Below are positions 10,228-47,571 of a DNA stretch of 54,141 bases, one piece after another (position 1 is the stretch's first letter; each line of letters begins with the position of its first letter). A model generated the notes under the pieces. The model was not told the DNA's origin. It did no database searches and saw nothing but the letters and a program-made list of their open reading frames with translations. Origin of the DNA: a virus (lineage: Duplodnaviria > Caudoviricetes); IMG/VR virus record IMGVR_UViG_3300027833_000066, positions 1-54,141 of that record; one strand, 5' to 3'. Both the position numbers and the translations under genes were made by a program.

Positions 10228-10265
10228 TATAAATAATATTAGAAGAGGGGGGACAGTCCCCCCTC
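10228..10265 (+). promoter_or_regulatory. Late promoter (10228-10235) followed by a perfect GC-rich inverted repeat (10245-10265)
   Basis: TATAAATA, then GAGGGGGGAC-A-GTCCCCCCTC; no U tract follows. Confidence 0.7.
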
Positions 10266-10291
10266 CGATAATATGATGAGGAATATTCAAA

Positions 10292-19602: not shown

Positions 19603-20178
19603 ATGACTACTAAAGCAAAAGCTAAAGCTAAACCACACTACGTTAACAACAAAGAGTTTTCTTTGGCTGTTGTCGAATATGTTAGATCTGCAAATGAAGC
19701 AAAGGAAAAAGATCTTGAAGTTCCTAAGGTAACTAATTATGTAGCAACATGCTTCATGAAAATATCTGAAGGACTATCACATAGACCAAACTTTGTTCGA
19801 TATACCTATCGTGAAGAAATGGTAATGGATGGTGTTGAAAACTGTTTAAGAGCAATCAATAATTACAGAATTGAAACTGCTACTAGAACAGGTAACCCTA
19901 ATGCGTTTTCTTATTTTACTCAAATTTGTTACTTTGCGTTTATTAGACGTATCACTAAAGAAAAGAAGCAGCAAGACATTAAGTTTAGATTCATAGAAAG
20001 AATGGGTATTGAAGATTTTGCAGCTATGGGTATGGACTCTAACGGAGCTCAGCAAACTATGGAGTATGTGGATCAGTTGAGACAAAGGATTGATCAGGTT
20101 AGAACCAAGGATGATAAGATCAAAGAGTTTGCTAAGATCGAAAAAGAGAAAGACAAACTAGAATTATTTATGGTATAA
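19603..20178 (+). CDS. gp55: Late transcription sigma factor gp55
   Basis: HYVNNKEF, PNFVRYTYREEMVMDGVENC, NAFSYFTQICYFAFIRRITKEKKQ. Confidence 0.96.
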   Translation: MTTKAKAKAKPHYVNNKEFSLAVVEYVRSANEAKEKDLEVPKVTNYVATCFMKISEGLSHRPNFVRYTYREEMVMDGVENCLRAINNYRIETATRTGNPNAFSYFTQICYFAFIRRITKEKKQQDIKFRFIERMGIEDFAAMGMDSNGAQQTMEYVDQLRQRIDQVRTKDDKIKEFAKIEKEKDKLELFMV

Positions 20179-25810: not shown

Positions 25811-25858
25811 ACTATGGTATAATAGTCTTATAAACTGATAAGGAACTATATTATGAAA
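25811..25858 (+). repeat. 48-bp early promoter-RBS-ATG cassette, copy 1 (-35 TGTACA at 25795-25800)
   Basis: ACTATGGTATAATAGTCTTATAAACTGATAAGGAACTATATTATGAAA; one mismatch to copies 2 and 3. Confidence 0.9.
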
Positions 25859-26983
25859 ATCTCAACTCAAAACATTCTTACTGAACTGGCTACTAAATAT
25901 CCAGATCAAATCCATTTTCGAAAGAATATAATCGAAAGTACAGCCAAAAGCATGGGTTATACTGGCAAAGACTTTGTACCGTTGTTAGATACTAGAGTTA
26001 AAATTGGTACATACAGCTTAGAAGCTCAACTTAAATCAATTTCACAAAGGGTTATTCCTACTATCGCTAAGCCTGAAAACATTGCTAAAATGCAATCAAT
26101 TGTTAACGAAGAAAAAACCTTTGCTAAACTAGATCCAACGTTTGTACCTTGGGGTGCTTACTCGGATATCGTTAAAATGGTTAAGTCTGAAATGTTCTTT
26201 CCCATTTACATTAGTGGTCTATCAGGTAATGGTAAAACATTCATGGTAGAGCAAGCTTGTTCAAAACTAAATAGGGAGTTCATTCGTGTTCAAATCAATC
26301 CAGAAACAGATGAAGACGATCTCATCGGAGGCTTTAGACTTATTAATGGAGAAACAGTATTCTCTAAGGGACCAGTTCTCAAGGCAATGGAAAACGGCGC
26401 AATCTTATTGCTCGACGAAATTGATCGTGCTACAAATAAGATTATGTGTCTACAAGGTATACTTGAAGGTAAGCCTGTTCTCGTTAAGAAAACGGGTGAA
26501 ACAATTTCTCCTAAAGCTGGCTTCAATGTTATAGCCACGGCTAATACAAAAGGCAAAGGCTCTGAGGATGGAAGGTTTACTGCTGCTTCGATTATTGATG
26601 AAGCTTTCTTAGAAAGATTTACCGTTGCTATTGATCAACAGTTCCCTTCTCCGTCAATCGAAACAAAGATCCTTAATAACCATATGACTAAATTTGGTGT
26701 AGAGGATACAGACTTCGTAGAGAAACTTATTACATGGGCTGACATTATTCGTAAGACGTTTTACGACGAAGGTGTTGATGAAGTTATTTCAACTCGTAGG
26801 TTATGTCACATTGCTCAAACCTTCTCAATTTTCAATAATAGAACGAAAGCAATAGATCTATGTATCGCAAGGTTTGATGAAGATACTAAATCTGCTTTCT
26901 TAGATCTATACAGCAAAGTTGATGATGGGGTAGTAACTATAGATGGTACAAATGAAACAACACAGGAAGCTTCATATGAGTAA
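25853..26983 (+). CDS. MoxR/CobS-like AAA+ ATPase
   Basis: GLSGNGKT, LLLDEID, ATANTKG, AFLERF, ISTRRL. Confidence 0.92.
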   Translation: MKISTQNILTELATKYPDQIHFRKNIIESTAKSMGYTGKDFVPLLDTRVKIGTYSLEAQLKSISQRVIPTIAKPENIAKMQSIVNEEKTFAKLDPTFVPWGAYSDIVKMVKSEMFFPIYISGLSGNGKTFMVEQACSKLNREFIRVQINPETDEDDLIGGFRLINGETVFSKGPVLKAMENGAILLLDEIDRATNKIMCLQGILEGKPVLVKKTGETISPKAGFNVIATANTKGKGSEDGRFTAASIIDEAFLERFTVAIDQQFPSPSIETKILNNHMTKFGVEDTDFVEKLITWADIIRKTFYDEGVDEVISTRRLCHIAQTFSIFNNRTKAIDLCIARFDEDTKSAFLDLYSKVDDGVVTIDGTNETTQEASYE

Positions 26984-27327: not shown

Positions 27328-27993
27328 ATGAAAATCTCAAATGCAACAATTAACATCTTAAAAAACTATGCAGGAATAAACTCGAATTTAGTGTTTAAAC
27401 CTGGGAAGTCTTTGAAGACAATCGCCGAAGCAAAAACAATTATGGCTTCCGCTTCGATTATCGAAGACTTCCCAGTCGAATTCGGGGTCTATGATCTCAA
27501 TGAATTCTTATCTTTATTTAGTCTTATGGATGAACCATCATTGGAGTTCAGTGAAAAGTATTTAACTATGACTGATGGCTCTCAAAAGATCAAGTACTTC
27601 TATTCGGAAATTGATATTCTTACTCAACCAACTAAAGATATCAACATGCCTGAATGTGAAGTTGTATTGGATATCTCAGCTGAAAATATGGATAAGATCC
27701 GAAAAGCAGCTGCAGTTCTTGGTCATTCTGAACTAGCGTTTACTTGTACAGGCGAGGACGTTACAGCTTCAGTCTTTAACGAGAAAGATGCTACTGCGAA
27801 TACCTTTGATATCAACTTAGGTATCGCAAATGATAACACGTTTAACTACGTCTTTAGTATCTCTAATTTGAGAATGCTACAAGGCAACTATACAGTTTCG
27901 ATCTCCTCTAAGCTTATATCTAACTGGCGTCATGCTGATGATCCATTAGATTATTTTATTGCTTTAGAGAAATCGTCAAAGTTTGGTGTATAA
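27328..27993 (+). CDS. gp45: Sliding clamp gp45
   Basis: ILKNYAGINSNL, FGVYDLNEFL, YFIALE. Confidence 0.95.
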   Translation: MKISNATINILKNYAGINSNLVFKPGKSLKTIAEAKTIMASASIIEDFPVEFGVYDLNEFLSLFSLMDEPSLEFSEKYLTMTDGSQKIKYFYSEIDILTQPTKDINMPECEVVLDISAENMDKIRKAAAVLGHSELAFTCTGEDVTASVFNEKDATANTFDINLGIANDNTFNYVFSISNLRMLQGNYTVSISSKLISNWRHADDPLDYFIALEKSSKFGV

Positions 27994-30583: not shown

Positions 30584-31036
30584 ATGGTAAGAAATACTAT
30601 GAACGTGCCTCGTTCTTTATTCATCGGGTTTGAACCCATACTAAACGAACTTGAAAGAATCCACTCAGCTGGAAGATCCCAAGATAACTATCCACCCCAC
30701 AATGTTGTAAAAATCGATGATGAAAACTTCATTATTGAACTTGCTGTGGCTGGTTTTGGCGAAGAAGATATCTTCATTGAAGTCAAGGATGGAATTCTTT
30801 TAGTTAAAGGTGATAGCGCTAATGATGAAAGAGAGTATGCATATAAAGGTATATCGTCCCGCAAATTTGAGAAGAGCTTCCGACTCTCAGAATTTGTCGT
30901 AATTGACGGGGCCTCAATGGTGAACGGAATACTTGTGGTGAATGCCAGGGTTGAAGTTCCAGAAGAGAGGAGACCTAGGAAGATCGAAATCGGATCTACT
31001 GGGACATCAAAGAAGAAGTCATTCATTCAAGATTGA
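30584..31036 (+). CDS. hsp20: Small heat shock protein (Hsp20/IbpA-like)
   Basis: NYPPHNV, IELAVAGF, KGISSRKF, NGIL, PEERRPRKI. Confidence 0.95.
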   Translation: MVRNTMNVPRSLFIGFEPILNELERIHSAGRSQDNYPPHNVVKIDDENFIIELAVAGFGEEDIFIEVKDGILLVKGDSANDEREYAYKGISSRKFEKSFRLSEFVVIDGASMVNGILVVNARVEVPEERRPRKIEIGSTGTSKKKSFIQD

Positions 31037-31325: not shown

Positions 31326-33836
31326 ATGAAATTCTATACATCTATATCTCGTTACGGTAATCAGCTTCTATTTCGTGGTTATGACAACGGCAAAAAAATA
31401 CAACAAAAAATTAAATATGAACCTACCTTCTTTGTTAATACAACAAAGCCTTCTGGTTGGTCAGCACTCGATGGGACAAAGGTTGCTCCCGTAAAATTCG
31501 AATCAATGCGCGATGCTAAAGAATGGTTACAAGTTAATCAGCAAACAGCAGGTCGGCATATCTATGGTAACAATAAGCATATTCCAGCTTACATCAACGA
31601 AGCATTCCCTGGTGATATCAAATTTGATCGTAACTTAATCAATGTAACTTCAATTGATATTGAGGTTCAATCTGATTCTGGATTCCCTGAGCCTGAAGAA
31701 GCTGCTCACGAAATCACAGCAATCGGTATGAAAAATAACATTGATAACACATATTACGTGTGGGGTTTAAAACCTTACGATGTAGAAAAAACATACATGA
31801 AAGATTGTCGTGTAGTCTATAAGGAATGCGCTACTGAATCTCAATTGTTACTCGAGTATATTGCTCATTGGTCTAGTCCATCGCAATGTCCTGATGTAAT
31901 CACAGGGTGGAATTCAAGGTTCTTTGATATACCATATATCGTCAATCGCATCCTAAGAATCCATGGCGAAGAATTCGCTAAACGATTATCACCTTGGGGA
32001 TTAGTTGATCGTAGAGATATCACAACTATGCAGCGTAAACAATGCGCATATGAAATCCAAGGTATTGCTCAAATGGATTACCTTGAACTATTCAAAAAGT
32101 TTGGTTACTCTTACGGCCCTCAAGAAACATATAAACTTGATCATATTGCTCACGTAGTTCTTGGTGAAAACAAGCTTTCATACGAAGAGCATGGTAACCT
32201 ACACACTCTTTACAAATACGATCACCAAAAGTTTATTGACTACAACATTAAAGATGTTGAATTGGTAGATCGCTTGGAAGATAAGATGGGTCTCATTACA
32301 CTAGCTCTCACCATGGCATATCGCGGTGGTGTTAACTATGGTGACGTAATGGGTACTACAGCAATCTGGGATGCTATCATCTTTAGAAATCTGTATGCTA
32401 ATAATGTGATTGTACCCTTTGCTGAGGAAAAGTTTAAGTCTCCATATCCTGGCGGTTACGTCAAAGATCCTAAAACTGGAATGCACGAATGGGTAGTTTC
32501 TTTTGACTTAAACTCACTATATCCTTCAATCATTATGCAGTATAACATGTCTCCTGAAACTATTATCAGTGGAAAGGTTGGCAATGTTACTGTAGATAAA
32601 CTTTCTGAATCTCCAGTAACTCCACCTAGAACTAGCAATGAATGTATGGCAGCGTCTGGTCAGTATTTTACTACTGATAAGCAGGGGATACTACCTAAGA
32701 TTATTGATCAAATGTACAGCGAACGTGTTGTCATTAAACGTCAAATGATTGCAGCTCAGAAGGAACTAGAAAAAGTAGACAAAACTAATAAGACCGAATT
32801 GTATAAAATCCAACGTGATATTAGTATTGCTGAAAATCAACAAATGTCTATTAAGATTCTTCTTAACAGTTTATATGGTGCGTTAGGTAATAAGTACTTT
32901 AGATTCTTTGATCAACGTATCGCTGAAGGTATTACCTTAACCGGCCAGCTTACTATTCGCTGGGCTGAAACTGCCATCAATGATTATCTTAGAAAAATAC
33001 TTAAAACCAAAAAGGATTACGTTGTTGCTATTGATACTGATTCTGTTTACGTAGTGCTAGATGATCTAGTTAAAGCAGTCAGTCCGGTTAACCCATTGGA
33101 ATTTGTTGATACAGTTTGCAAGGAAAAGCTTGAAACTGTCTTGGAAGATTCTTATACTAAACTATTTGAAATGCTTGGTGGCATTGAAAATCGAATGGTT
33201 ATGAAACGTGAAGCTATCGCCGATCGTGGCATCTGGACAGCAAAGAAAAGGTATATCCTTAATGTACTAGACAACGAAGGTGTTCGCTACGCTGAGCCAA
33301 AGCTTAAGATCATGGGCATTGAAGCTATTAAATCTTCAACACCAGCTCCATGTCGAGCGGCACTTAAGCAAATGTTTAAAACCATTATTGCTGGCGATGA
33401 AGTTCTAGTTCAACAGGAAATTGAAACATTCCGCAATCACTTCAAATCATTACCGCCTCATGAAATTGCTTTCCCTCGTGGAGTAACTAACCTTACGCAA
33501 TACATGGATAACCTTAAGATATACAAGAAAGGTACTCCAATTCATTGTAGAGGCAGTATCTTACACAACAAACTGATTGGAGATTTATCTCTAAAGAATC
33601 AGTATAACAAAATCCAAAATGGTGAAAAGATCAAATTCGTCTATCTTCGTACTCCAAACAAAATCAAGGAAAACGTTATCGCCTTTGGTGATTACCTTCC
33701 AGAGGAGTTTGGATTACATCGGTTTATTGATTATGATACTCAATTCAACAAAACGTTCTTGGATGCTATTGAACCTATTCTATCTGCCATAGGATGGACA
33801 TCTGCTGAGGTAGCAACATTGGATGAATTCTTTTAA
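31326..33836 (+). CDS. gp43: Family B DNA polymerase gp43
   Basis: DIEV exonuclease motif, SFDLNSLYPSII, KILLNSLYGALG, IDTDS, KKRY. Confidence 0.98.
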   Translation: MKFYTSISRYGNQLLFRGYDNGKKIQQKIKYEPTFFVNTTKPSGWSALDGTKVAPVKFESMRDAKEWLQVNQQTAGRHIYGNNKHIPAYINEAFPGDIKFDRNLINVTSIDIEVQSDSGFPEPEEAAHEITAIGMKNNIDNTYYVWGLKPYDVEKTYMKDCRVVYKECATESQLLLEYIAHWSSPSQCPDVITGWNSRFFDIPYIVNRILRIHGEEFAKRLSPWGLVDRRDITTMQRKQCAYEIQGIAQMDYLELFKKFGYSYGPQETYKLDHIAHVVLGENKLSYEEHGNLHTLYKYDHQKFIDYNIKDVELVDRLEDKMGLITLALTMAYRGGVNYGDVMGTTAIWDAIIFRNLYANNVIVPFAEEKFKSPYPGGYVKDPKTGMHEWVVSFDLNSLYPSIIMQYNMSPETIISGKVGNVTVDKLSESPVTPPRTSNECMAASGQYFTTDKQGILPKIIDQMYSERVVIKRQMIAAQKELEKVDKTNKTELYKIQRDISIAENQQMSIKILLNSLYGALGNKYFRFFDQRIAEGITLTGQLTIRWAETAINDYLRKILKTKKDYVVAIDTDSVYVVLDDLVKAVSPVNPLEFVDTVCKEKLETVLEDSYTKLFEMLGGIENRMVMKREAIADRGIWTAKKRYILNVLDNEGVRYAEPKLKIMGIEAIKSSTPAPCRAALKQMFKTIIAGDEVLVQQEIETFRNHFKSLPPHEIAFPRGVTNLTQYMDNLKIYKKGTPIHCRGSILHNKLIGDLSLKNQYNKIQNGEKIKFVYLRTPNKIKENVIAFGDYLPEEFGLHRFIDYDTQFNKTFLDAIEPILSAIGWTSAEVATLDEFF

Positions 33837-33897: not shown

Positions 33898-34188
33898 ATG
33901 TCAGACATTAAATTATACAGGTTAACTACAGGCGAAGAAATTGTAGCACAGTACGTAGGTGATTACCCTGATGGACATTATGTTCAAAACCCGATCGCAA
34001 TGTATGCGGCCGAAGAAGGCAAAATTGGCTTCATGCCATTCATGCCATATACTGATGCTGCAGATGGATTAGAAATTAAAGATACAAATATTGTGTTTAT
34101 TCTTAATCCCATCCCCGAAATCATTGCTCAGTACGAGCAAGCAACTAGTACCATTATGGTACCACCAAAGCAAGGAATTATTGTATGA
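33898..34188 (+). CDS. Hypothetical Sm-like protein (start revised from 33823)
   Basis: AAGGAG RBS; LYRLTTGEEIVA..GFMPFMPY. Confidence 0.75.
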   Translation: MSDIKLYRLTTGEEIVAQYVGDYPDGHYVQNPIAMYAAEEGKIGFMPFMPYTDAADGLEIKDTNIVFILNPIPEIIAQYEQATSTIMVPPKQGIIV

Positions 34189-34586
34189 GTGTAGATTGGG
34201 TAAGAGATATTGCAGAAATGCACCAAAAGTATGGTGTACACGAATGGATTAAAAATAATCCTGAAAAGCTTGAGCAATTGTTACATTTTCGTGTAGCATT
34301 TCTTAAGGAAGAGTTTGATGAAACGTTTAAAGCTACAGGCGAAAAGGATGCTGAAGAAATCGTTGATGGTCTTATTGATCTATGTGTAGTGGCAATTGGA
34401 ACACTAGATCTATTTGGTATTGACGCTCACAAAGCATGGCAAGAAGTCCATAGCGCAAACATGTCAAAGGAAGTAGGTGTCAAGGAATCTAGACCAAATC
34501 CATTAGGACTACCAGATCTCATTAAACCTGAAGGCTGGACAGCTCCATCACATGAGTATAATCATGGTCGCCTTAACAATATTTGA
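34185..34586 (+). CDS. MazG/PRA-PH-like all-alpha NTP pyrophosphohydrolase
   Basis: FLKEEFDE..EEIVDGLIDL..EVHSANMSK..KPEGW. Confidence 0.88.
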   Translation: MSVDWVRDIAEMHQKYGVHEWIKNNPEKLEQLLHFRVAFLKEEFDETFKATGEKDAEEIVDGLIDLCVVAIGTLDLFGIDAHKAWQEVHSANMSKEVGVKESRPNPLGLPDLIKPEGWTAPSHEYNHGRLNNI

Positions 34587-35490: not shown

Positions 35491-36021
35491 ATGTTAGAGA
35501 AATTTGAAGAAATAACTATGAAAATTTTAATTTGGGTTTGTGTCTTAGCGTGGCCAGTATTAATATTGGTCTTAATTCTAGCTCCAATGGCTCAAGCTTC
35601 CGATGAAAATGGTGATGTGTTTTGCATGGCTAAGAACATCTATTTTGAAGCTGGCAATCAACCACTTGCTGGTAAACTTGCAGTATCTCATGTAGTTTTA
35701 AACAGAGTTATGAGTGATGAATATCCAAATAATGTTTGTGATGTAGTCTATCAAGCGCAATGGTTTGAAAATTGGAAAGGCACAACTATTCCAGTAAGAC
35801 ATATGTGTCAATTCAGCTGGTTTTGCGATGGCAAGTCTGACGTACCTGAAGACAGTGCTACATGGAATTCATCTTTAAAGATTGCGGCTAATTTAATGTA
35901 TTATAGAAATCAAGATATTACTGAAGGCGCAACGCATTATCACGCAGATAATGTTCACCCATATTGGGCAGACAGTTTGAATAGAACAGTCACAATTGAC
36001 CAACATATTTTTTACAAATAG
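35491..36021 (+). CDS. SleB-like cell wall hydrolase (Hydrolase_2) with N-terminal membrane segment
   Basis: NIYFEA, VVLNRV, CQFSWFCDG, GATHYHA, HIFYK. Confidence 0.92.
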   Translation: MLEKFEEITMKILIWVCVLAWPVLILVLILAPMAQASDENGDVFCMAKNIYFEAGNQPLAGKLAVSHVVLNRVMSDEYPNNVCDVVYQAQWFENWKGTTIPVRHMCQFSWFCDGKSDVPEDSATWNSSLKIAANLMYYRNQDITEGATHYHADNVHPYWADSLNRTVTIDQHIFYK

Positions 36022-36072: not shown

Positions 36073-36120
36073 ACTATGGTATAATAGTCTTATAAACTGA
36101 TAAGGAACTACATTATGAAA
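36073..36120 (+). repeat. 48-bp early promoter-RBS-ATG cassette, copy 2 (-35 TGTACA at 36057-36062)
   Basis: Identical to copy 3 at 47650-47697. Confidence 0.9.
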
Positions 36121-36603
36121 TTTAAACTTGACGACCTAAACATCGATACTAATGAATTTAGACAACGCGCTTTAGAAGAAGCCATTCTGATTAAGTCTAA
36201 TAAGAAAGACTCTCATAGAGATCTTGAGGGTAATATATTACCTATGGTTATGAAAGGGCATTATGCTGAATGGATTGGCATGACTGAACTAAATCATACC
36301 GATAACCCAGAACCATATCATGACACGTTTGATCATGAAGGCGTTGACTCAGATCATAAAGTTAGCTATAGTAAAATCCAGTTAAATAAAAATATAAGTG
36401 AGTATTCTTGGAGAGTTCAATCTCAAGAACGAACTGGCTGGCCTAAGTCTCAACTAGCTCATAGAGTATACGGTTGGGTTGGTGATGCTATCAGCGGTGA
36501 CTACGAATTAGTGGGCATATATAACTATGATAAAGAAACTAAAAAAATGGTGTACACAGCCCCTGAAACATGTTATAATAGATCTTTAAGTTTTGAGGTA
36601 TAA
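36115..36603 (+). CDS. Hypothetical early protein, possible PD-(D/E)xK nuclease
   Basis: GHYAE...PYHD...DSDHK spacing resembles E..D..(D/E)xK. Confidence 0.55.
   Translation: MKFKLDDLNIDTNEFRQRALEEAILIKSNKKDSHRDLEGNILPMVMKGHYAEWIGMTELNHTDNPEPYHDTFDHEGVDSDHKVSYSKIQLNKNISEYSWRVQSQERTGWPKSQLAHRVYGWVGDAISGDYELVGIYNYDKETKKMVYTAPETCYNRSLSFEV
36551..36579 (+). promoter_or_regulatory. Early/middle promoter for the nucleotide modification genes, embedded in the upstream CDS
   Basis: TGTACA-17 nt-TATAAT. Confidence 0.8.
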
Positions 36604-36609
36604 TAAGTA

Positions 36610-36924
36610 ATGGCAAAGTACGATGATCAAAAACCACCATTAGGCTTGATTCCACCAGAATGTCTTGAAGACATTGCTGTCGTATTTGGCTTTGGCGCTG
36701 AAAAGTATGGTGTAAACAATTGGCGTGATGACCAACATGAAACTAGCTGGATACGTACGTATTCTTCTATTCAACGTCATCTAAACAAATGGCACAGTGG
36801 CGAAGATATAGATCCAGAATCTGGTATGTCTCACTTAGCTCACGCAACAACTCAGTTAATGATTTTAATGACAGCTCAATCCGAGCATCCCGAAGTTGAC
36901 GATAGGTATCGAAAAAATGCATAA
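36610..36924 (+). CDS. dATP/dGTP diphosphohydrolase-like protein (DUF5664-like)
   Basis: KYDDQK..LIPP..FGAEKYGVNNW..RHL..GEDIDPESGMSHLAHA. Confidence 0.85.
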   Translation: MAKYDDQKPPLGLIPPECLEDIAVVFGFGAEKYGVNNWRDDQHETSWIRTYSSIQRHLNKWHSGEDIDPESGMSHLAHATTQLMILMTAQSEHPEVDDRYRKNA

Positions 36925-37585
36925 CACAATTGATGATGTACGTTCATATTTTATAAATGAATTGTTCTGTAGAAACTTTACAGAAGATCGCACCGGCGGT
37001 AAAACTATTGAATTGCTAGGTGCTTCATTCTTAGCATCAGAAAATGCTATCTTTGGTAAACCTAACCAAGATTACATTGATGCTGAAATTGATTGGTATA
37101 ATTCACAATCAACTAATATCAATGATATCTATGGAACTGGCTTTGATGATAAAAAGCCACCGCAAGCATGGCGAATGACTGCAAATCAACATGGTGAAAT
37201 CAATTCAAACTATGGTCATTTGATTGAAGCTGATAAATACTTTAATCAATGGGATCGTGCTTTAACTGAATTGTTGACTAATCCAGATTCTCGTAGAGCT
37301 TCAATGATCTATACACGTCCATCAATATGGAATGAGTATAATGAAAATGGTAAGAATGATTTCATTTGCACTAACTCAGTCACATATTATATCCGTGATG
37401 ACAAAGTCCATTGTGTAGTTCAAATGCGTTCTAACGATGTTATATTCGGTTACCGTAATGATTACGCATGGCAGCTTCATGTCTTACAACACATGGCTGA
37501 AGATCTTGGTCATGAAGTAGGTGATATCCATTGGCAAGTTCAAAACCTTCATGTGTACGAACGCCATTTTGACTTGGTACTATAA
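36917..37585 (+). CDS. gp42: dCMP hydroxymethylase (T4 gp42-like, thymidylate synthase fold)
   Basis: NSNYG, DFICTN, QMRSNDVIFGYRNDYAWQ and LHVYERHF closely match T4 gp42, including the dCMP-specifying Asp. Confidence 0.88.
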   Translation: MHNTIDDVRSYFINELFCRNFTEDRTGGKTIELLGASFLASENAIFGKPNQDYIDAEIDWYNSQSTNINDIYGTGFDDKKPPQAWRMTANQHGEINSNYGHLIEADKYFNQWDRALTELLTNPDSRRASMIYTRPSIWNEYNENGKNDFICTNSVTYYIRDDKVHCVVQMRSNDVIFGYRNDYAWQLHVLQHMAEDLGHEVGDIHWQVQNLHVYERHFDLVL

Positions 37586-38034
37586 TGAATAAATATAAGT
37601 GGGATAAGCGATTTTTAAACTTAGCAGGACAAATTGCTACGTGGTCTAAGGATCCATCAACTAAGGTTGGAGCTGTGGCTGTTGGTTCCAAAGGACAAAT
37701 TCTAGCGCAAGGTTATAATGGTTTCCCTAGAGGTATTAATGATTCTGCTGATAGATTAAAACACAGGCAAGCTAAGTATCAATTCGTAGTACATGCAGAA
37801 ATGAACTGTATATATAATGCTACATATAATGGCGTTTCATTAGATGGCGCTACGTTATATATTCAAGGATTGCCATGTTGCGCAGAATGTGCTAAGGGTA
37901 TTATTCAAGTTGGAGTAGCAAGAGTAGTAACAAAGGGTTTAGATGATTCAACACCAGATCGTTGGTTAGAGTCAAATAAAATAACAGAAGAATTATTTGC
38001 GGAAGCAGGAGTTGTATACGATTACGTCGTATAA
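37585..38034 (+). CDS. cd: dCMP deaminase
   Basis: SKDPSTKVGA, GYNG, HAEMN, PCCAEC. Confidence 0.93.
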   Translation: MNKYKWDKRFLNLAGQIATWSKDPSTKVGAVAVGSKGQILAQGYNGFPRGINDSADRLKHRQAKYQFVVHAEMNCIYNATYNGVSLDGATLYIQGLPCCAECAKGIIQVGVARVVTKGLDDSTPDRWLESNKITEELFAEAGVVYDYVV

Positions 38035-38042
38035 GTATAATT

Positions 38043-38363
38043 ATGACAAAAGATAGATTTGATTTAGAACAAGCCATCATGGTTGCATGGAGTACATGCG
38101 AAGATATCGATTTAATTTATCACAATACTGATAACTTAAGTTTAAATGCTAAAGACGCTGATATTCTACAAAACCAATTATTAGGTTTAAGGTATATCAC
38201 TGAACTGCGCTTTGAAAAGATGTGGAGTGTATTTGAAGAGTTAATTGCTTTGCAAGCGCTTGAAGTGCCAGATACCGAAGACGTGTATAATAATGAAATG
38301 GAAGAATATTTAGCAATGAAGGATGGAATTGAGTCTGATAGTATTTGGAACTCAACGGAATAG
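38043..38363 (+). CDS. Hypothetical protein
   Basis: DRFDLEQAIM..LLGL..LRFEKMW; 106 aa. Confidence 0.75.
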   Translation: MTKDRFDLEQAIMVAWSTCEDIDLIYHNTDNLSLNAKDADILQNQLLGLRYITELRFEKMWSVFEELIALQALEVPDTEDVYNNEMEEYLAMKDGIESDSIWNSTE

Positions 38364-38369
38364 AATATT

Positions 38370-38446
38370 GCGCCTTTAGCTCAGCTGGATAGAGCAACGG
38401 CCTTCTAAGCCGTAGGTCAGTGGTTCGAATCCACTAAGGCGTACCA
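38370..38446 (+). tRNA. tRNA-Arg (anticodon TCT)
   Basis: Cloverleaf with GCGCCTT/AAGGCGT acceptor stem, TAGCTCAGCTGGATAGAGC D arm, ACGGC-CTTCTAA-GCCGT anticodon arm, GGTTCGAATCC T arm and encoded CCA. Confidence 0.97.
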
Positions 38447-38464
38447 AATTTTAATAAAGAGGAA

Positions 38465-38704
38465 ATGATAATGCAGTTATTACGAGATGAAAATAATCGA
38501 CCGTTTGTAAAGATGGATTTATATTCAGATCTTGTTGATGAGTTGTTTGTAGTTAAAACACGTTCGGTCATCAAAGATCTTGAAGAATATCTAGATGAAC
38601 CTTTGTCAGCGCATCCGGAAGATCTTAAAGTTTATACTGAGCAAATTGCAGCTCATCGTAAAATTTTAGAATGGCATACGCCGAATGACGAGTGGGAGAG
38701 CTAG
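38465..38704 (+). CDS. Hypothetical protein
   Basis: GAGGA RBS; 79 aa. Confidence 0.7.
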   Translation: MIMQLLRDENNRPFVKMDLYSDLVDELFVVKTRSVIKDLEEYLDEPLSAHPEDLKVYTEQIAAHRKILEWHTPNDEWES

Positions 38705-38707
38705 AAA

Positions 38708-38938
38708 GTGTTATATGTAGATTACAAGTTCGAGATAACTAGACAAGGGATATGTTTTGTGGATTCTAACTCTGAATTAGAACCCCACAACATGATGAAA
38801 ATGCCTGAAGGTTATCATATAGGTGATACTTTTGTGTTATGCCAAACAGCAAATGGAAATGTATTCCTAAGAAGAACTGATCATCACGTCTTATTTAATG
38901 AAGAGTTTGAATCAGAGTATTATTCCTCATCTGAATAA
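38708..38938 (+). CDS. Hypothetical protein
   Basis: GTG start, GGGAG RBS; 76 aa. Confidence 0.65.
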   Translation: MLYVDYKFEITRQGICFVDSNSELEPHNMMKMPEGYHIGDTFVLCQTANGNVFLRRTDHHVLFNEEFESEYYSSSE

Positions 38939-39007
38939 TTGGTGCACTCGGCATTGGGTTTCATTCCTCAATTAAAATAAACGAATGGATGGTGCCCAGG
39001 AGATAAT

Positions 39008-39148
39008 GTGAATAGAACAAACGGAGTATGGTTACTCCGAGTATTACTGATGATATGGTTATCGTTTTCTGTAAAGAATACAGATGATCTATATGGCGTA
39101 AGATATAGTATGAGAAGTTTTGAAGAATGTAAAAAGGTGCAAAAATGA
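39008..39148 (+). CDS. Small hypothetical membrane peptide (46 aa; not in the ORF track)
   Basis: AGGAG RBS, GTG start, hydrophobic stretch VWLLRVLLMIWLSF. Confidence 0.5.
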   Translation: MNRTNGVWLLRVLLMIWLSFSVKNTDDLYGVRYSMRSFEECKKVQK

Positions 39149-39306
39149 TTATTAAAGATAAACCGCGCGCAAAACCAAATCCGGTTAAAAAGAACATGGA
39201 TAAGTTTCATAAGCCTGCAACGCATAAAGACGAAAGTAAATACGATCGTAAAGACTTTAAGCAAAAGCAACGTAAATTGACTGATCTAAATTGGGATGGC
39301 GAATAA
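39145..39306 (+). CDS. Small basic protein (53 aa; not in the ORF track)
   Basis: MIIKDKPRAKPNPVKKNMDKFHKPATHKDESKYDRK...; coupled at both ends (ATGA, TAATG). Confidence 0.65.
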   Translation: MIIKDKPRAKPNPVKKNMDKFHKPATHKDESKYDRKDFKQKQRKLTDLNWDGE

Positions 39307-39614
39307 TGAGTCCTAAAGATATAAAAACAATTGCTCCTGAAGAACTACAAAATTCAAAGAGAATTTATAAGAGTGCTACACCAAAGCAGACTCTTGATTG
39401 GTATGTCAAATGGGTAGCTTCTGTATTTGTATTAGCCGCAATGTCGATAAGAGGTATTGATGGTTTACAAATGTATGATTTAGCTTTATCTGCATGCGGT
39501 ATTATGTTATGGTTGTGGGTATCTATTCTGTGGAAAGATCGAGCGTTGATTCTACTCAACGGAGTTGGTCTAATGTTTTTATTGAAAAATTTAGCACAAA
39601 GCCTTTACATTTGA
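39306..39614 (+). CDS. Small three-TM membrane protein
   Basis: DWYVKWVAS..WLWVSILWKDRALILLN. Confidence 0.75.
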   Translation: MSPKDIKTIAPEELQNSKRIYKSATPKQTLDWYVKWVASVFVLAAMSIRGIDGLQMYDLALSACGIMLWLWVSILWKDRALILLNGVGLMFLLKNLAQSLYI

Positions 39615-39632
39615 AGCAAACTGTGTTATAAT
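39604..39632 (+). promoter_or_regulatory. Early/middle promoter of the glycosyltransferase operon
   Basis: TTTACA-17 nt-TATAAT with TG extension. Confidence 0.85.
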
Positions 39633-39663
39633 AGATCTATTATTAAAAAGGTGAATTTACATT

Positions 39664-41055
39664 ATGAAAATAGCGTTTATATTCGGTAAAGGTATCGATG
39701 GATGTGGAGTTACAAGAGGCGCTCTCATATTCGAAAAGTATCTAGCTGATGCTGGCCATGAATCAATTATATTAGATTTTGATAATGGTCAAAGTTTTGG
39801 TAGAGCAAAACATGCTCAATGGCTAGGACAAGTATACAAAATTGCTAAAAATGATACTGATGTTAGTAATGAAATTATCAATGCTGTAAACAGTTGTGAC
39901 ATGTCAGTATTTCATTCTCATCCAACTCGTAAGCAAGCTCCATACGTAGATCGATATAGAAGATTCTTAGAAAAAGTCGATACGTTAAAAATTATGCATG
40001 ATCATTCGATCGCAAAAACAAACATTAATGCTATACCACAAGCCTGTGAAATCTTTTCTCATGCTGATACTGCGGTGATTCAGTCACTCGATGGTTTTAG
40101 TAAAGAAGCTTATACCAACTTTGATCCAGGGTTATCTAATAGATTAATAGAAAACCCAATATGGATTGTTCCAGAATCTATGGATAAGTTTCGCAAATCA
40201 TATTCTGAAAGGGAAAACCACTTGTTGTATCTTGGGAGAATGTCTCCTTTAAAAGATCCAGCAATGATTTGCCGTATTCAACCTCATATGAAAGATTGGA
40301 AGTTATCCATCATAGGCTGCGAAAACTCTATCTCTTCAGTGAGCATGTATTCTGAAGATTTAACGATCAATCCATCTCCATATGTTCCAGCGTTTCGTCC
40401 TATGATATACCAACATTCTTTAAATAAAGATGGCGGTTATAACTTGAATGAAAAAGAACAAGCTAAAGATGGTAAAATTAATTCTTATGATAGTTACCTT
40501 TATGATTGGGGTATGGAACAGCTTGGCTCTTGCAAGGCCTCATGGTGTGGCTACAAGCTTTCGAACGCTGATGAGTATGGTACACGCATGGAATATACCA
40601 TGATTGAATCATTCCTATTAACTCTACCTATTATGAATCGACACTTTGCAGATAATGCTTATGCGCCAGATGGTAGAAAGTGGGGTGCTATTGAGGGACC
40701 TTTAATATCACAAGCTAGAGAAGAAGAAGAGCTAGCTGATATCCTATTGTCTATGAGTGAAAATGAATGGAACGAAAGAACTGAAGCATGTAGAAAACTT
40801 ATATTTGATTTTAACAATATTGAAACTCTAGGAGCTAAGTTCTTATCGCAAGTACAAGCTATGGGATCTAGATCTAAAATAAGTGCCATAGATAGAATTA
40901 GTGAATATTTTCCAGATGCTCCACAATTAAGAAAAGAAGGTGAAATTATTATGTCTTCTGCTGTAGGAACACTAAAGAAAAAACAGCATATAATGATAGA
41001 TGGAAAGCAAGCTGAATATAAAGCTCCGGTTAATTCCTTAGAGGCATTTTTTTAA
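39664..41055 (+). CDS. DNA glycosyltransferase, T4 alpha-glucosyltransferase-like (GT-B)
   Basis: GKGIDGCGVTR (T4 a-gt RGLEGCGVTK), MHDHS (QHDHS), YLGR...K, MEYTMIE (LEYTHLE). Confidence 0.85.
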   Translation: MKIAFIFGKGIDGCGVTRGALIFEKYLADAGHESIILDFDNGQSFGRAKHAQWLGQVYKIAKNDTDVSNEIINAVNSCDMSVFHSHPTRKQAPYVDRYRRFLEKVDTLKIMHDHSIAKTNINAIPQACEIFSHADTAVIQSLDGFSKEAYTNFDPGLSNRLIENPIWIVPESMDKFRKSYSERENHLLYLGRMSPLKDPAMICRIQPHMKDWKLSIIGCENSISSVSMYSEDLTINPSPYVPAFRPMIYQHSLNKDGGYNLNEKEQAKDGKINSYDSYLYDWGMEQLGSCKASWCGYKLSNADEYGTRMEYTMIESFLLTLPIMNRHFADNAYAPDGRKWGAIEGPLISQAREEEELADILLSMSENEWNERTEACRKLIFDFNNIETLGAKFLSQVQAMGSRSKISAIDRISEYFPDAPQLRKEGEIIMSSAVGTLKKKQHIMIDGKQAEYKAPVNSLEAFF

Positions 41056-42089
41056 TGGAACATAATAAAAGATTGATAGTAGATTTTGATGATACTTTAG
41101 CGCATACCAAGAATAGAGATTGGGAAAACGCTGAACCTAACTGGCCATTGATCAATAAGTTAAATGATCTATCTAATTCAGGTTGGACAGTTGATATCTT
41201 TACAGCACGTGGTTCTATATCATGCTCTTCAAGAGAAGAAGCTGCAGAAAAGTATAGCTTACAGATTCGTGATTGGTTATCAAATAACAATGTGAAGTAT
41301 AATACGCTAAGCTTTAATAAACCATTAGGCGCTTACTATATTGACGACAAAGGTATATCCCCAGAAGATTTTATCACCACTGATATAAGACAACTCGAAG
41401 GTGGATTGTCTGGTTCAGATATTTACACCGATGGAAAGTTAGTACATAAAACTGATACTAATGCATTAGCAGTTCAGCAATGGTTTTCTGATGTTGACTC
41501 TTGGCTTCTTACGCCAAAGATTGAACGTGTAGTTGGTGATACTATTACTATGGAATATATTGATCATGATGAAGATTTTTTTATTAATAATTTTTATGTT
41601 TCTCTTGCGTTAATTCAAGAATCATTAGATTCAATGAAAAGAATCCCCAGCTCCAGCCCTTTTAGTTTTAGCAGTTACTGTGATCGGATTGAAGACCATG
41701 CTCATCTAGCACAGGTTCATTTATATGTCGAAGTGGTAGAATTACTAAGAACTATATGGAATTTAAATTCCTCGTTCTCTCATGGAGACTTTGGAATAAA
41801 GAACATGCTTTTTACTGAAGAGCATAATGAATTAGTTCTTATTGATCCTATTCCTAATATGTTTGGTTGTACTGAATTAGATGTAGCTAAATTTTTAGCA
41901 TCGCTACGAGTCAACTATCCAAGAATGGATCGTTGGGATATGGCATTTAAAACTTTAGCAACATATAACAACATTGAATTGGATTTGTTAAGCGTGTTGA
42001 CAGCGGCTGAACTTATAAGAATTCATAAGTATCACCCAGAAAAACAATTTATTATGGAGCAAGTTAAGTATGTTTTTGAACAAAAATGA
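41055..42089 (+). CDS. HAD phosphatase fused to an APH/choline-kinase-like kinase
   Basis: HAD motifs VDFDDTL, FTARG and KP..YIDDK; kinase motifs GGLSG, HGDFGIKN and LIDP. Confidence 0.85.
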   Translation: MEHNKRLIVDFDDTLAHTKNRDWENAEPNWPLINKLNDLSNSGWTVDIFTARGSISCSSREEAAEKYSLQIRDWLSNNNVKYNTLSFNKPLGAYYIDDKGISPEDFITTDIRQLEGGLSGSDIYTDGKLVHKTDTNALAVQQWFSDVDSWLLTPKIERVVGDTITMEYIDHDEDFFINNFYVSLALIQESLDSMKRIPSSSPFSFSSYCDRIEDHAHLAQVHLYVEVVELLRTIWNLNSSFSHGDFGIKNMLFTEEHNELVLIDPIPNMFGCTELDVAKFLASLRVNYPRMDRWDMAFKTLATYNNIELDLLSVLTAAELIRIHKYHPEKQFIMEQVKYVFEQK

Positions 42090-42498
42090 TTTACCGATTG
42101 GTGGCAAAGTTGGATTCACGTGTTCAACGTTTGATCTATTTCATGCTGGTCATATCGTAATGCTACAAGAAGCTAGATCACTATGCGATTATTTAGTAGT
42201 AGGTTTATTAATTGATCCAACAGTTGATAGACCTGATTCTAAGAACAAACCAATTCAAACAGCATTTGAACGTTATGTTCAATTATCAGCATGTCGCTAT
42301 GTAGATGAGGTTATACCTTTCTCAACTGAACAAGAACTTGTAGATATGATTCTAACAATCAATCCTGATATAAGAATCGTTGGAGAAGAATACAAGGATA
42401 AAGAACATACAGGAAAAGGATTAACTCCTGTCCATTATAACAAAAGAAGGCATTCGTTTTCTTCAACAGACCTTAGAGAGCGAGTAAAGAAATCATGA
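42070..42498 (+). CDS. TagD/RfaE-like nucleotidyltransferase
   Basis: TFDLFHAGH (HxGH), LVVGL, RYVDEV, SSTDLRERV. Confidence 0.9.
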   Translation: MFLNKNDLPIGGKVGFTCSTFDLFHAGHIVMLQEARSLCDYLVVGLLIDPTVDRPDSKNKPIQTAFERYVQLSACRYVDEVIPFSTEQELVDMILTINPDIRIVGEEYKDKEHTGKGLTPVHYNKRRHSFSSTDLRERVKKS

Positions 42499-43691
42499 AT
42501 TATGCATCTATAGTACCACTCATTGGTGGTGAAACAATTGCAATGGAACAAGTTTTTGGGAAAAGGCCAGAATATATCATGTCTTATGATGGGTTTTTTA
42601 ATAATGATCAGCACATTTTAGAGCATTATAATAATGAAGTACCATATTATAATTTGTCTCAGGTGACTGAGAAGATGAAACAAGTAGACGTAGTAAATGC
42701 GGTATGTCCTTGTGCTGGCCTTTCATCCCTTTCTCCTGCAGCTGCTTCGGATAATTCAGCAAATGATTGGATGGTTGAAAGCGCTAAGTATGTTTTAGGA
42801 ACAGTTAAGCCTAAAGTATTCTGGGGAGAGAATGCTCCAAGATTAGCAAGTAAGATGGGTGAACCTATTGTAGAAAGACTACGTAGAATTGGTTCTCAAC
42901 ATGGTTATACCTTCTCTTTATTTAAAACTAAGTCTAAGCTTCATGGTTTAAGTCAGGTTAGAGATCGATCTTTTTACTTCTTTTGGAAGAGTGAAACAAC
43001 GCCGCTTATTCGATATACTTGGAGACCTCATCAACGCATTGAAGATTTGATTATGTCAGTAGAGCGTAGAGAAGATGATCCAATGAACATCTTGACTAAT
43101 CAAAAGAAGCCAACCGATAATCCATATTACAAATATATTTTAGAAGTTATTCATCCAGGAATGACTCATCCAGAATTTGCGGCTCAGTTAGAGAGATCAG
43201 AAAACGTGTTAAGTTATATCGAAGAAAAGCTAGGTAGAACTACTTGCTATAACATCGTTGGTGATTGGATGACTGAGCATGGATACGAACGTGAAGCTAT
43301 TAAATGTAAACGCATGTACGCTAAGCTAAAAGCTGGTGGTAACATTATGCGTAAGACTACTGAAATTCCTAGTAGTTACATTGGAGCTTTCGTTGGCCAC
43401 ATGCCAACAATGTTAACGCATCCTGTAGAAGATCGGTATCTTACGATTCGTGAATGTTTGACCATTATGAAACTACCTGATGATTTTATATTACAAGGTG
43501 GACTACGCAATCTAAATCATATATGTCAAAATGTCCCAGTTACAACAGCTGCTGATATGGCTCAATCTATTAAGCTATTCTTAGAAGGTAGATTAGAGAG
43601 TGTTGATTCAAGCTTCGTTGTTCAAGACAATAAAAATAAAATTGAAAAATATGAAAAAAACAGTTTACAATTAACTGAATTTATGTTATAA
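42495..43691 (+). CDS. C5-cytosine methyltransferase-fold protein with atypical motif I
   Basis: CPCAGLS (IV), ENAP (VI), QVRDRSF (VIII), RYLTIREC..LPDDF (IX), QNVP (X); motif I reads VPLIGG. Confidence 0.8.
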   Translation: MNYASIVPLIGGETIAMEQVFGKRPEYIMSYDGFFNNDQHILEHYNNEVPYYNLSQVTEKMKQVDVVNAVCPCAGLSSLSPAAASDNSANDWMVESAKYVLGTVKPKVFWGENAPRLASKMGEPIVERLRRIGSQHGYTFSLFKTKSKLHGLSQVRDRSFYFFWKSETTPLIRYTWRPHQRIEDLIMSVERREDDPMNILTNQKKPTDNPYYKYILEVIHPGMTHPEFAAQLERSENVLSYIEEKLGRTTCYNIVGDWMTEHGYEREAIKCKRMYAKLKAGGNIMRKTTEIPSSYIGAFVGHMPTMLTHPVEDRYLTIRECLTIMKLPDDFILQGGLRNLNHICQNVPVTTAADMAQSIKLFLEGRLESVDSSFVVQDNKNKIEKYEKNSLQLTEFML

Positions 43692-43692
43692 T
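43664..43692 (+). promoter_or_regulatory. Early/middle promoter for bS21-uvsX
   Basis: TTTACA-17 nt-TATAAT, overlapping the end of the MTase-like gene. Confidence 0.8.
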
Positions 43693-43723: not shown

Positions 43724-43993
43724 ATGCCAAGTGTAAAATTAACAGCAGAACCCCAAAAATATCGGAAAGGTCAGAAATCGCGACCACCTCAAGATATGCC
43801 ATTCGATGTCGCGATGAGAAAGTTTAAGAAAGCCGTAGAAGCTGCTGGTGTTCTTCAAGACGTTAAGCGTAAAGAATACTATGAAAAGCCGACATGGAAG
43901 CGTAAGCGTAAGAAAGCAGAAGCTCTGGCCAGAACAAAACGTCAGCAGCAAGCTAATGATATGGGACCTAATGGTCGTAGGAGAATGTACTAA
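43724..43993 (+). CDS. rpsU: Phage-encoded 30S ribosomal protein bS21
   Basis: [41 protein letters not shown]. Confidence 0.9.
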
Positions 43994-46914: not shown

Positions 46915-47571
46915 ATGAAAGTAAAGCTTATATCATATAGTCAACCACCTGCAGAAAGTGAACTCAATGATGATCTTCTGCAGATGGTTGCATATTGCGC
47001 ACGTGTTTCAAACCCTAACAATCAAAATAGTGAAGGGACTTCTGAAAAACTAGTAAAGTATCTAATGAAGCATCAACATTGGTCTCCATTAGAAATGGTA
47101 TCGGTTTGTATGGAAATTGAAACAACTCGAGATATTGCACGCCAGGTCTTAAGGCATCGATCTTTTTCATTCCAAGAGTTTAGTCAGCGCTACGCTAAGC
47201 CGGAAGAGATGGGTGAAGGTTGGCCATTTATTGTAAGGGAAGCTCGTCTACAAGATACAAAGAATAGACAAAATTCTATTGCGACTGATGATGAACTACT
47301 ACAACAACATTGGATCCAGCAACAAAAGAAAGTTATTGCTACTGCTCAAGGCGCATACAACTGGGCTATTGATAACGGTATTGCTAAGGAGCAAGCTCGT
47401 TGTGTATTGCCGGAGGGTAATACCATTAGCCGTATGTATATGAACGGTACTTTGAGAAGCTGGTTACATTATATAGATCTAAGACGATCTAATGGGACTC
47501 AACAGGAACACGCTGATATCGCTCTAGTTTGCGCTGACGTGATTTCTAAGATCTTTCCTATAGAGTTATAG
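46915..47571 (+). CDS. thyX: Flavin-dependent thymidylate synthase ThyX
   Basis: HWSPLE, RQVLRHRSFSFQEFSQRY, EQAR, GTLRSWLHYIDLR. Confidence 0.96.
   Translation: MKVKLISYSQPPAESELNDDLLQMVAYCARVSNPNNQNSEGTSEKLVKYLMKHQHWSPLEMVSVCMEIETTRDIARQVLRHRSFSFQEFSQRYAKPEEMGEGWPFIVREARLQDTKNRQNSIATDDELLQQHWIQQQKKVIATAQGAYNWAIDNGIAKEQARCVLPEGNTISRMYMNGTLRSWLHYIDLRRSNGTQQEHADIALVCADVISKIFPIEL

Follow-up and report, generated by a model that had tools for sequence, protein, structure and literature searches.

Glucosylation of the 5-hydroxymethylcytosine (hmC) of phage T4 draws on host UDP-glucose. Two published pathways build an activated sugar donor with enzymes of their own. As described by Pyle, Lund, O'Toole and Saleh (bioRxiv 10.1101/2023.12.21.572611), contig 53 encodes a HAD-like/APH-like bifunctional enzyme, a cytidylyltransferase and a GT-B DNA glycosyltransferase (GT), a kit that gave mono- and di-heptosyl-5hmC in E. 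coli with all three enzymes essential; in the metagenome survey that they describe, GT-B contigs adjoin thymidylate synthase (TS) homologues, APH phosphotransferases, methyltransferases and dCMP deaminase. In the Afh pathway, as set out in PMC13326640, a kinase produces arabinose 1,5-bisphosphate, a HAD enzyme removes the 5-phosphate and a nucleotidyltransferase then makes UDP-arabinose, and 1xpj is given there (its Table 1) as the top structural match of the sugar-bisphosphate phosphatases of RB69 and DLP3. Here we analyse a locus of related composition at positions 36610-43691 of the IMG/VR virus record IMGVR_UViG_3300027833_000066. The window, by which we mean the whole stretch of DNA that was analysed, is this complete record of 54,141 bases (CheckV completeness ~30%) and its source is an uncultured marine T4-like myovirus.

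The locus consists of a nucleotide block, with a diphosphohydrolase, a TS homologue of the T4 gp42 type and a dCMP deaminase, and of a glycosylation operon encoding a GT of the alpha-GT family, a HAD phosphatase/APH-kinase fusion (the fusion), an HxGH nucleotidyltransferase and a divergent C5-cytosine DNA methyltransferase (the methylase). All seven open reading frames (ORFs) lie on the plus strand where an initial annotation, made from the letters alone, had placed them, and the families that it assigned to them stand. That annotation proposed a new hypermodification pathway, in which a four-gene unit would build a non-glucose donor and attach an unusual sugar or polyol to modified cytosine, with a further step by the methyltransferase-fold enzyme. 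The self-made, non-glucose donor is upheld, since the two neighbours of the GT look like a dedicated route to just such a compound, and we regard this idea as well supported. It is not new: the same three-part kit has been reconstituted and gave heptosyl-5hmC, according to the account of contig 53 (10.1101/2023.12.21.572611), and the logic of phosphatase, kinase and nucleotidyltransferase is described for arabinosyl-5-hydroxycytosine (PMC13326640). The four-gene unit, the extra methyltransferase step and the polyol were not borne out. In our judgement it is likely that the locus as a whole makes hmC, builds its own donor (probably a heptose) and transfers the sugar with a clamp-docked GT, the genes for donor and transfer forming an exchangeable cassette beside a resident methylase.

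In a large marine T4-like clade, the genes for GT, fusion and nucleotidyltransferase make up one version of a cassette that can be swapped. Relatives of the GT were found at 23 IMG/VR loci (50-100% identity). In 18 of them the next gene is the fusion, and the remaining five contigs end in or just past the GT, so that all 18 loci which reach the fusion's position have it, and the nucleotidyltransferase follows in all 17 that extend far enough; the three genes occur as a set. The methylase comes next in 15 of the 16 loci that reach so far. In the exception (L012, 4007-5789) the place of the methylase beside a window-type cassette is taken by two genes, a short one resembling UDP-glucose dehydrogenase and one for an NAD epimerase/dehydratase, and its sugar nucleotide may be tailored further. 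A gp42 gene lies upstream of the GT in 18 of the 23 loci; four of the other five have 1.2 kb of upstream sequence or less and the fifth (L008) has 4.2 kb of upstream sequence with no gp42 match.

The methylase has relatives on at least 584 viral contigs, and we examined 105 loci, each with a methylase of at least 45% identity. Upstream of the methylase lies gp42 in 37 of the 39 loci having at least 7 kb of sequence on that side, and downstream of it lies uvsX in 64 of the 68 having at least 2.6 kb. In 59 loci the slot is bracketed by gp42-deaminase on one side and methylase-uvsX on the other, and nine classes of content were distinguished: a TAGT-type GT only (PF20691, phrog_842; 15 loci), a distant alpha-GT-like GT with an epimerase (14), the window-type kit (11), the window-type kit with a TAGT (1), the distant alpha-GT-like GT alone (5), an epimerase only (1), the distant GT with a UDP-glucose dehydrogenase and an epimerase (1), the distant GT with a HAD and an AfhE-like fusion (1), and slots in which none of the queries matched (10); because these loci were collected by GT and methylase queries with near-duplicates kept, the counts stand for kinds of cassette and not for frequencies, and to that extent they weaken our reading. 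Since the content of the slot varies between fixed flanks, the 'four-gene operon' is better described as an exchangeable cassette of three genes followed by a methylase that is resident: the methylase stays while the cassette upstream of it is swapped for at least six other gene sets, and L012 has the cassette with no methylase. The pair of fusion and nucleotidyltransferase is itself mobile, being present (30% and 51% identity, respectively) in Agathobaculum phage AB434P2 and in a faecal phage scaffold with a different GT and with a TS homologue. The slot is a hot spot for the exchange of whole sugar-modification cassettes, a pattern that is the expected outcome of an arms race with modification-dependent host nucleases.

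Some slots hold other genes. Two of the ten slots without a recognised GT, those of L111 (6188-10004) and L091 (5150-10004), which correspond to window positions 38035-42494, contain an inositol-1-phosphate-synthase-like gene, a 5-hmdU-DNA-kinase-like gene (PF18723, E 5.5e-12) and two proteins of ~345 amino acids (aa) of no assigned family, with an FkbM methyltransferase in addition in L091; slots of this type could serve a non-sugar hypermodification of hmC or of 5-hydroxymethyluracil (hmU). An additional TAGT-family GT lies between fusion and nucleotidyltransferase in L019 (7049-7894) and would allow a second sugar.

The GT matches the alpha-glucosyltransferase family phrog_2888 over residues 1-340, and its place in the alpha-GT family stands. 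It matched 186 phage records, every one of them at less than 60% identity, the best homologues in isolates being gp313 of Bacillus phage G and a protein of cyanophage S-TIM5. The HAD domain of the fusion (residues 5-110) finds PDB entries 9iqw (E 1.8e-10) and 1xpj (E 6.3e-10) and, below its cut-off, the capsule biosynthesis phosphatase model TIGR01689 (E 5.8e-14). The AlphaFold2 (AF2) model of the 344-residue fusion has a predicted local distance difference test (pLDDT) score of 90, and the C-terminal domain shows the aminoglycoside/choline-kinase fold, with APH(3') (E 6e-8) and also methylthioribose, malto- and choline/ethanolamine kinases among the Foldseek resemblances; full-length relatives of the fusion fall into 283 protein clusters. 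Among NCBIfam models the nucleotidyltransferase scores best with that of heptose 1-phosphate adenylyltransferase (rfaE domain II; E 1.3e-22), and the next curated model is glycerol-3-phosphate cytidylyltransferase, both below cut-off. Of the solved structures, those nearest to it in sequence are 3elb (ethanolamine-phosphate cytidylyltransferase, E 3.8e-24) and 1coz (glycerol-3-phosphate cytidylyltransferase, E 1.7e-14).

As to the acceptor base, the TS-fold protein is by its sequence an orthologue of T4 gp42 and a predicted hmC synthase. Its residues 11-228 align to residues 7-225 of the 1b49 chain, the best PDB match, and the string RSND...GYRNDYAWQ quoted in support of the original assignment is present. 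The ORF finder starts the gene at a TTG; an ATG seven codons inside is an equally possible start, as residue 11 is the first to align to T4. The catalytic Cys and the Asp specifying dCMP over dUMP are identical to those of T4 (the same T4 residues are mutated in 6a9a and 6l18), as is the Asp three residues before the catalytic Cys. An acidic residue at that place leads to a hydroxymethyl instead of a methyl product by the L143D/E rule described in PMC13326640, where the position carries its E. coli number, a numbering that comes from that source and not from our alignment. The same paper (2026) describes RB69-type 'gp42' proteins that make 5-hydroxy-dCMP and are marked by an Asp-to-Asn change, D169N. 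In this column the window protein has Asp like T4, and the PDB chain 9iqu has Asn; a 5-hydroxy-dCMP synthase of the RB69 gp48 / DLP3 gp80 type is ruled out, and the acceptor base is predicted to be hmC and not 5-hydroxycytosine. An hmC acceptor in the clade is also indicated by the TAGT ORFs of the relatives, which match PF20691 and phrog_842, the T-even beta-glucosyl-HMC-alpha-glucosyltransferase family.

Several genes of the window would serve the supply of nucleotides. The PF18909 diphosphohydrolase, which probably supplies dCMP, overlaps the start of the gp42-type gene and its relatives lie immediately upstream of gp42 in 18 of the 23 GT-related loci. A MazG/PRA-PH-type gene, kept upstream of the locus throughout the clade, is a candidate dCTPase on the evidence of its family, and PRA-PH genes co-localise with a dCMP-specific TS and a deaminase on modified-cytosine contigs (10.1101/2024.12.05.627091). 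The start of the dCMP deaminase gene shares one base with the gp42 stop, and ThyX is indeed present elsewhere in the window.

Two enzymes of the locus end like the polymerase. A tail of the form L..F followed by zero to two residues closes four of the 77 plus-strand ORFs of at least 70 aa in the window, namely the gp55 late sigma factor, the gp43 polymerase, the GT and the methylase. In T4, gp43, gp55 and gp33 bind the gp45 clamp via such tails, according to PMC2988020. Among relatives the tail is found at 96 of 102 C-termini of the methylase, 17 of 19 of TAGT and 30 of 46 of the alpha-GT-like enzymes (39 of 46 allowing Ile for Leu); it is found at none of 276 in the fusion (0/20), nucleotidyltransferase (0/26), gp42 (0/61), deaminase (0/53), UvsX (0/84) and epimerase (0/32). 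A complex prediction for gp45 and methylase residues 336-398, run without controls, gave scores of 0.19 and 0.17 (mark 0.32) and counts neither for nor against binding. Since the GT carries a tail like those of polymerase and gp55, it probably rides gp45 and works on newly copied DNA, and we predict from the sequences that the DNA-acting enzymes of the locus dock on the clamp. DNMT1 uses PCNA in a comparable way. If the prediction is true, enzymes that mask DNA may travel with the sliding clamp and act on the DNA during its synthesis, and the shared tails offer a testable mechanism.

The pathway may then be pictured as follows. Judged by family membership, a phage NTP pyrophosphohydrolase would yield dCMP, which the gp42-type enzyme would turn into 5-hydroxymethyl-dCMP to be phosphorylated and incorporated instead of dCMP, and the deaminase and ThyX would maintain the supply of dTMP. 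By analogy with the two published pathways, the kinase half of the fusion would phosphorylate C1 of a host sugar phosphate, most likely D-glycero-D-manno-heptose 7-phosphate (the main alternative being a pentose 5-phosphate), its HAD half would strip the distal phosphate and the nucleotidyltransferase would make an NDP-sugar from the resulting sugar-1-phosphate. The GT, probably on gp45 as its tail suggests, would finally move the sugar onto the hydroxymethyl group of hmC in freshly replicated DNA. The three donor-and-transfer genes would represent one allele of an exchangeable glycosylation cassette. The methylase would be a separate, conserved backbone enzyme which, on the most conservative reading, methylates unreplaced cytosines in nascent phage DNA.

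The methylase is highly divergent by sequence, its PDB matches lying near 1e-4. In its model (AF2, pLDDT 90.3) it has nonetheless a complete C5-cytosine methylase fold with the catalytic motifs: residues 1-366 superimpose on residues 12-325 of M.HhaI (1fjx) with Z 25.7 and a root-mean-square deviation of 3.2 over 294 aligned residues, and HaeIII gives Z 25.6. Canonical C5-methylases read F-x-G-x-G in motif I and have an acidic residue after strand 2 for S-adenosylmethionine. The present family is unusual in both respects, with P-L-I-G-G in the motif I region and any of D, E, S, R, P and T after strand 2, and the family profile aligns to HaeIII from motif IV onward only. In sets of 15 and of 22 sequences there is little or no variation at C73, E112-N113, R156/R158 and Q345-N346-V347-P348; these residues belong to motifs IV (Pro-Cys), VI (Glu-Asn-Val type), VIII (Arg-x-Arg) and X (Asn), where the family reads PC, ENA, RxR and QNVP. 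The fold and the catalytic motifs are thus those of a full C5-methylase, and the further step on the modified base with which the enzyme had been credited finds no direct support. Searches for TET/JBP (PF12851) gave no match in the window and none in the records of five relatives (one a complete 146.6-kb genome), in a search whose control genomes were also without match and whose sensitivity is therefore unproven; as no TET was found, a role for the methylase at the start of a methylase-TET route is not obvious.

Full-length relatives of the methylase form 2,461 protein clusters, and among isolate phages homologues occur in eight records only, from S-TIM5 cyanophages, Bacillus phage G and Pseudoalteromonas phage XG4. 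In XG4 the methylase ends a cluster of an hmC-type TS, a HAD, an AfhE-like fusion and two GT-like genes, and in phage G it lies 3-15 kb from two alpha-GTs, an NTP-transferase, a HAD, a dCMP deaminase and a TS homologue. The 143-kb viral contig L046 carries two tandem methylase paralogues (8781-11197) within a cluster of a HAD, an AfhE-like nucleotidyltransferase-kinase fusion, an alpha-GT-like GT, more GT-like genes, a nucleotide-kinase-like gene and an hmC-type TS homologue. This repeated company with gp42-type and GT genes is unexplained by any current model. Our literature searches turned up no paper addressing the pairing of gp42 with a C5-methylase: the word 'methyltransferase' is absent from the main text of the MetaGPA paper (PMC8670742), a jumbo-phage review merely lists cytosine methyltransferases (DCMs) and has the hmC of jumbo phages made as a free nucleotide (PMC7824862), and a preprint on 5-methylcytosine (5mC) deaminases mentions S-TIM5 for its deaminase only. 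One could regard the methylase-fold enzyme as a genuine, undescribed partner of pre-replicative hmC pathways, because it adjoins gp42-type and GT genes in several apparently unrelated lineages (this marine clade, XG4, L046, Bacillus phage G and the S-TIM5 cyanophages), no TET was detected, it ends in a clamp-docking-like tail as the GTs do and its cofactor motifs are altered. It may in that case work at the fork on hmC, whose hydroxymethyl group it might for instance activate or exchange, or it may create a deliberately mixed 5mC/glycosyl-hmC genome; we think such a partnership unlikely.

The identity of the sugar is where the preferred heptose faces its closest competitor. The same design would work with a pentofuranose (arabinose, ribose or xylose) drawn from a host pentose 5-phosphate via the 1,5-bisphosphate and placed on hmC, not on 5-hydroxycytosine. 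The HAD domain falls in the 1xpj-like group to which the arabinose-1,5-bisphosphate phosphatases of HY126, RB69 and DLP3 are described as belonging, the kinase shares the fold of the C-terminal domain of AfhE (3ham-like matches), a lone HAD with an AfhE-like nucleotidyltransferase-kinase fusion stands by an hmC-type TS in a clade relative (L074), in the unrelated L046 and in XG4, and Shewanella phage Thanatos is reported to carry a pentose on its cytosine (PMC12838424). Yet the nucleotidyltransferase is of the HxGH class and not MurU-like as in AfhE, the searches for a SIS domain found no arabinose-5-phosphate isomerase in the window, and the sole reconstituted kit of exactly this architecture is described as making heptose (10.1101/2023.12.21.572611), so that we rate a pentose as unlikely. 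That same kit tells against a polyol, the option named in the initial annotation. On this reading the GT-B enzyme would transfer a phospho-alcohol from an activated polyol or alcohol phosphate, a donor of the CDP-glycerol, CDP-ribitol or CDP-ethanolamine type. The best solved relatives of the nucleotidyltransferase, 3elb and 1coz, are of this kind and the kinase fold includes choline and ethanolamine kinases, but a kinase joined to a phosphatase suits the route from a sugar bisphosphate to a 1-phosphate and not alcohol phosphates, and the GT is the homologue of a hexosyl transferase; the polyol is the less likely class of donor and, as a reading of the locus, highly improbable.

The modified base might also be hmU: the deaminase, translationally coupled to gp42, would turn the hm-dCMP that gp42 makes into hm-dUMP, hmU would partly replace T and be glycosylated, and cytosine would stay as the substrate of the methylase. 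The genes for gp42 and deaminase overlap by one base here and adjoin each other in most relatives, seven of 90 TS-linked phage deaminases converted 5hm-dC nucleotides to 5hmdU in vivo (10.1101/2024.12.05.627091), the PF18723 kinase-like gene (E 5.5e-12) occurs in the cassettes of some relatives, and a clamp-tethered C5-methylase would gain an obvious substrate. Against this, the neighbourhood of TS(Asp), deaminase and PRA-PH was found in 104 of 149 modified and 17 of 277 unmodified contigs, the modification being of cytosine (10.1101/2024.12.05.627091), the characterised alpha-GT, phrog_842 and contig 53 enzymes act on hmC, a dCMP deaminase is found in T4 too, and ThyX indicates that dTMP is still produced. 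We therefore consider hmU distinctly improbable as the acceptor. The preferred pathway, from hmC to a heptosyl donor, has in its turn several points to answer. A clamp-tethered C5-methylase makes little sense with full replacement of cytosine and is unexplained by it. The likeness to contig 53 is a match of architecture alone, and GT53 is described as folding like T4 beta-GT, BshA and MshA, whereas the window GT is alpha-GT-like by sequence and matches T4 alpha-GT 1xv5 over its N-terminal 138 residues only. The HAD domain reaches 52 bits against a cut-off of 162 in the capsule-phosphatase model, and the nucleotidyltransferase 80 against 181.5 in the heptose model. No SIS isomerase (PF13580, PF01380) was matched in the window, which covers ~30% of the genome, and so the heptose or pentose phosphate would either come from the host or depend on a gene in the other ~70%. 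The base, the sugar and the nucleotide carrier of this phage are all inferred.

Table 1. Coordinates of the main features of the locus and of related genes in the window
Feature	Coordinates	Strand	Evidence
gp55 late sigma factor	19603..20178	+	phrog_234 E 1.2e-50
gp45 sliding clamp	27328..27993	+	phrog_223 E 2.2e-68; PF09116
gp43 polymerase	31326..33836	+	
MazG/PRA-PH-type nucleotide pyrophosphohydrolase	34185..34586	+	PF01503 E 6.2e-12; phrog_671 E 8.3e-27
Promoter-like site, extended -10, preceding nucleotide block	36551..36579	+	10/12 hexamer matches with TG
All-alpha NTP diphosphohydrolase, dATP/dGTP diphosphohydrolase N-terminal domain	36610..36924	+	PF18909 E 7.9e-31; phrog_801 E 6.4e-37
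gp42-type dCMP hydroxymethylase (predicted)	36896..37585	+	PDB 1b49 E 1.6e-63
dCMP deaminase	37585..38034	+	PF00383 E 1.3e-20; phrog_174 E 6e-46
tRNA-Arg (anticodon TCT), between nucleotide block and glycosylation operon	38370..38446	+	ARAGORN
Promoter-like site, extended -10, preceding glycosylation operon	39604..39632	+	11/12 matches
alpha-GT-family DNA glycosyltransferase	39664..41055	+	phrog_2888 E 2.2e-30; 1xv5 E 4.7e-8
HAD phosphatase/APH-kinase fusion	41055..42089	+	HAD ~residues 1-110; APH/choline-kinase fold ~residues 120-344
HxGH nucleotidyltransferase, cytidylyltransferase-like	42070..42498	+	PF01467 E 2e-17; phrog_7878 E 1.6e-33
C5-cytosine DNA methyltransferase, divergent phage clade	42495..43691	+	PF00145 E 4.7e-15
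Promoter-like site, directly ahead of S21-like ORF	43664..43692		11/12 matches
ThyX flavin-dependent thymidylate synthase	46915..47571	+	PF02511 E 4.2e-42

The remainder of the window is that of a T4-like phage. Pfam scans recovered the structural set (neck, gp15, terminase, sheath, tube, portal, prohead protease, scaffold and gp23) and the replication and recombination set (UvsY, UvsW, gp46/47-like genes, gp45 clamp, clamp loader, RegA, gp43 polymerase and ThyX), and UvsX- and DnaB-like genes lie downstream of the locus. Through the major capsid protein the closest isolates are Methylophilales phage Melnitz and Pelagibacter phage HTVC008M, at ~60% identity. A megablast search of 36610-43691 against isolate phages gave no near-identical DNA; the tRNA-Arg gene was the only part of the region to match, at 80-91% identity among the matches listed, to tRNA-Arg genes of Klebsiella and other phages. 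A CbbQ/CobS-like AAA ATPase (25853-26983), an Hsp20 (30584-31036) and a PF07486 cell-wall hydrolase (35491-36021) are also present, and are typical passengers in marine T4-like phages.

The ORFs of the two blocks overlap at successive junctions by 29, 1, 1, 20 and 4 bases, and the cassette genes and the methylase are probably co-transcribed. The initial annotation had placed the nucleotide genes under one promoter. The three best sigma-70-like extended -10 sites of the region (Table 1) each stand directly before a block, two of them being the sole sites with 11/12 matches, and are no more than compatible with such an arrangement; the total of 36 sigma-70-like sites is no excess over shuffled sequences (34.4 +/- 4.9). 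The third of these sites, a strong one, is directly ahead of an 89-residue ORF (43724-43993) between methylase and uvsX that matches a ribosomal protein S21 family of phages (phrog_21469, E 1.6e-18). Several small, conserved ORFs at 36115-36603 and 38043-39614 (162, 106, 79, 76 and 107 residues) flank the two blocks and have no Pfam or PHROG match; the 162-residue ORF has counterparts in relatives at 25-34% identity, and the 107-residue ORF (39291-39614) has, judged by eye, the appearance of a membrane protein.

Set beside known systems, the locus shares with T4 (gp56, gp42, gp1, alpha-GT, beta-GT) an orthologous gp42-type enzyme, a transferase of the alpha-GT family and the context of a T4-like replisome; T4 is not known to have donor-synthesis genes or a C5-methylase. 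With the ADP-heptose pathway of Gram-negative bacteria (HldE kinase, GmhB phosphatase, HldE adenylyltransferase) it shares the chemical logic, and the HldE/RfaE adenylyltransferase is the best curated model, although all scores are below the family cut-offs. The HldE kinase is ribokinase-like in fold, whereas the kinase of the window has the APH fold. CmoX of Synechococcus phage S-B43 resembles the methylase in being a phage enzyme of C5-methylase fold that acts on DNA cytosine, and its structure 8yf3 aligns to our model with Z 23.4. As described in PMC12783734, CmoX has an Arg at the position of M.HhaI Asn304 and an SPPC motif; the window enzyme keeps the Asn (QNVP), with no diagnostic Arg, and reads C-P-C, not SPPC, which rules out a carboxymethyltransferase of the CmoX type.

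The Afh systems of HY126, RB69 and DLP3, so far as they are described, agree with the locus in the logic of kinase, HAD and nucleotidyltransferase, in the 1xpj-type HAD, in the APH-fold kinase and in the pre-replicative TS homologue. They differ from it in that their HAD is a protein of its own and their kinase forms one polypeptide with a MurU-like nucleotidyltransferase, whereas the window has a HAD-kinase fusion and a separate HxGH nucleotidyltransferase; in that their TS homologue has undergone the Asp-to-Asn change and makes 5-hydroxy-dCMP, whereas that of the window keeps the Asp; and in their arabinose-5-phosphate isomerase, for which no SIS domain was found in the window (~30% of the genome). 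The three-part architecture of the cassette is that of contig 53. There, by the published description, 5hmC arises after replication through a C5-methylase and a TET-like dioxygenase, whereas in the window a gp42-type enzyme would provide it before replication. A DNA heptosylation kit proven at the bench is thereby placed within an abundant group of T4-like phages of the ocean, where it is coupled to a T4-style supply of hmC in place of TET.

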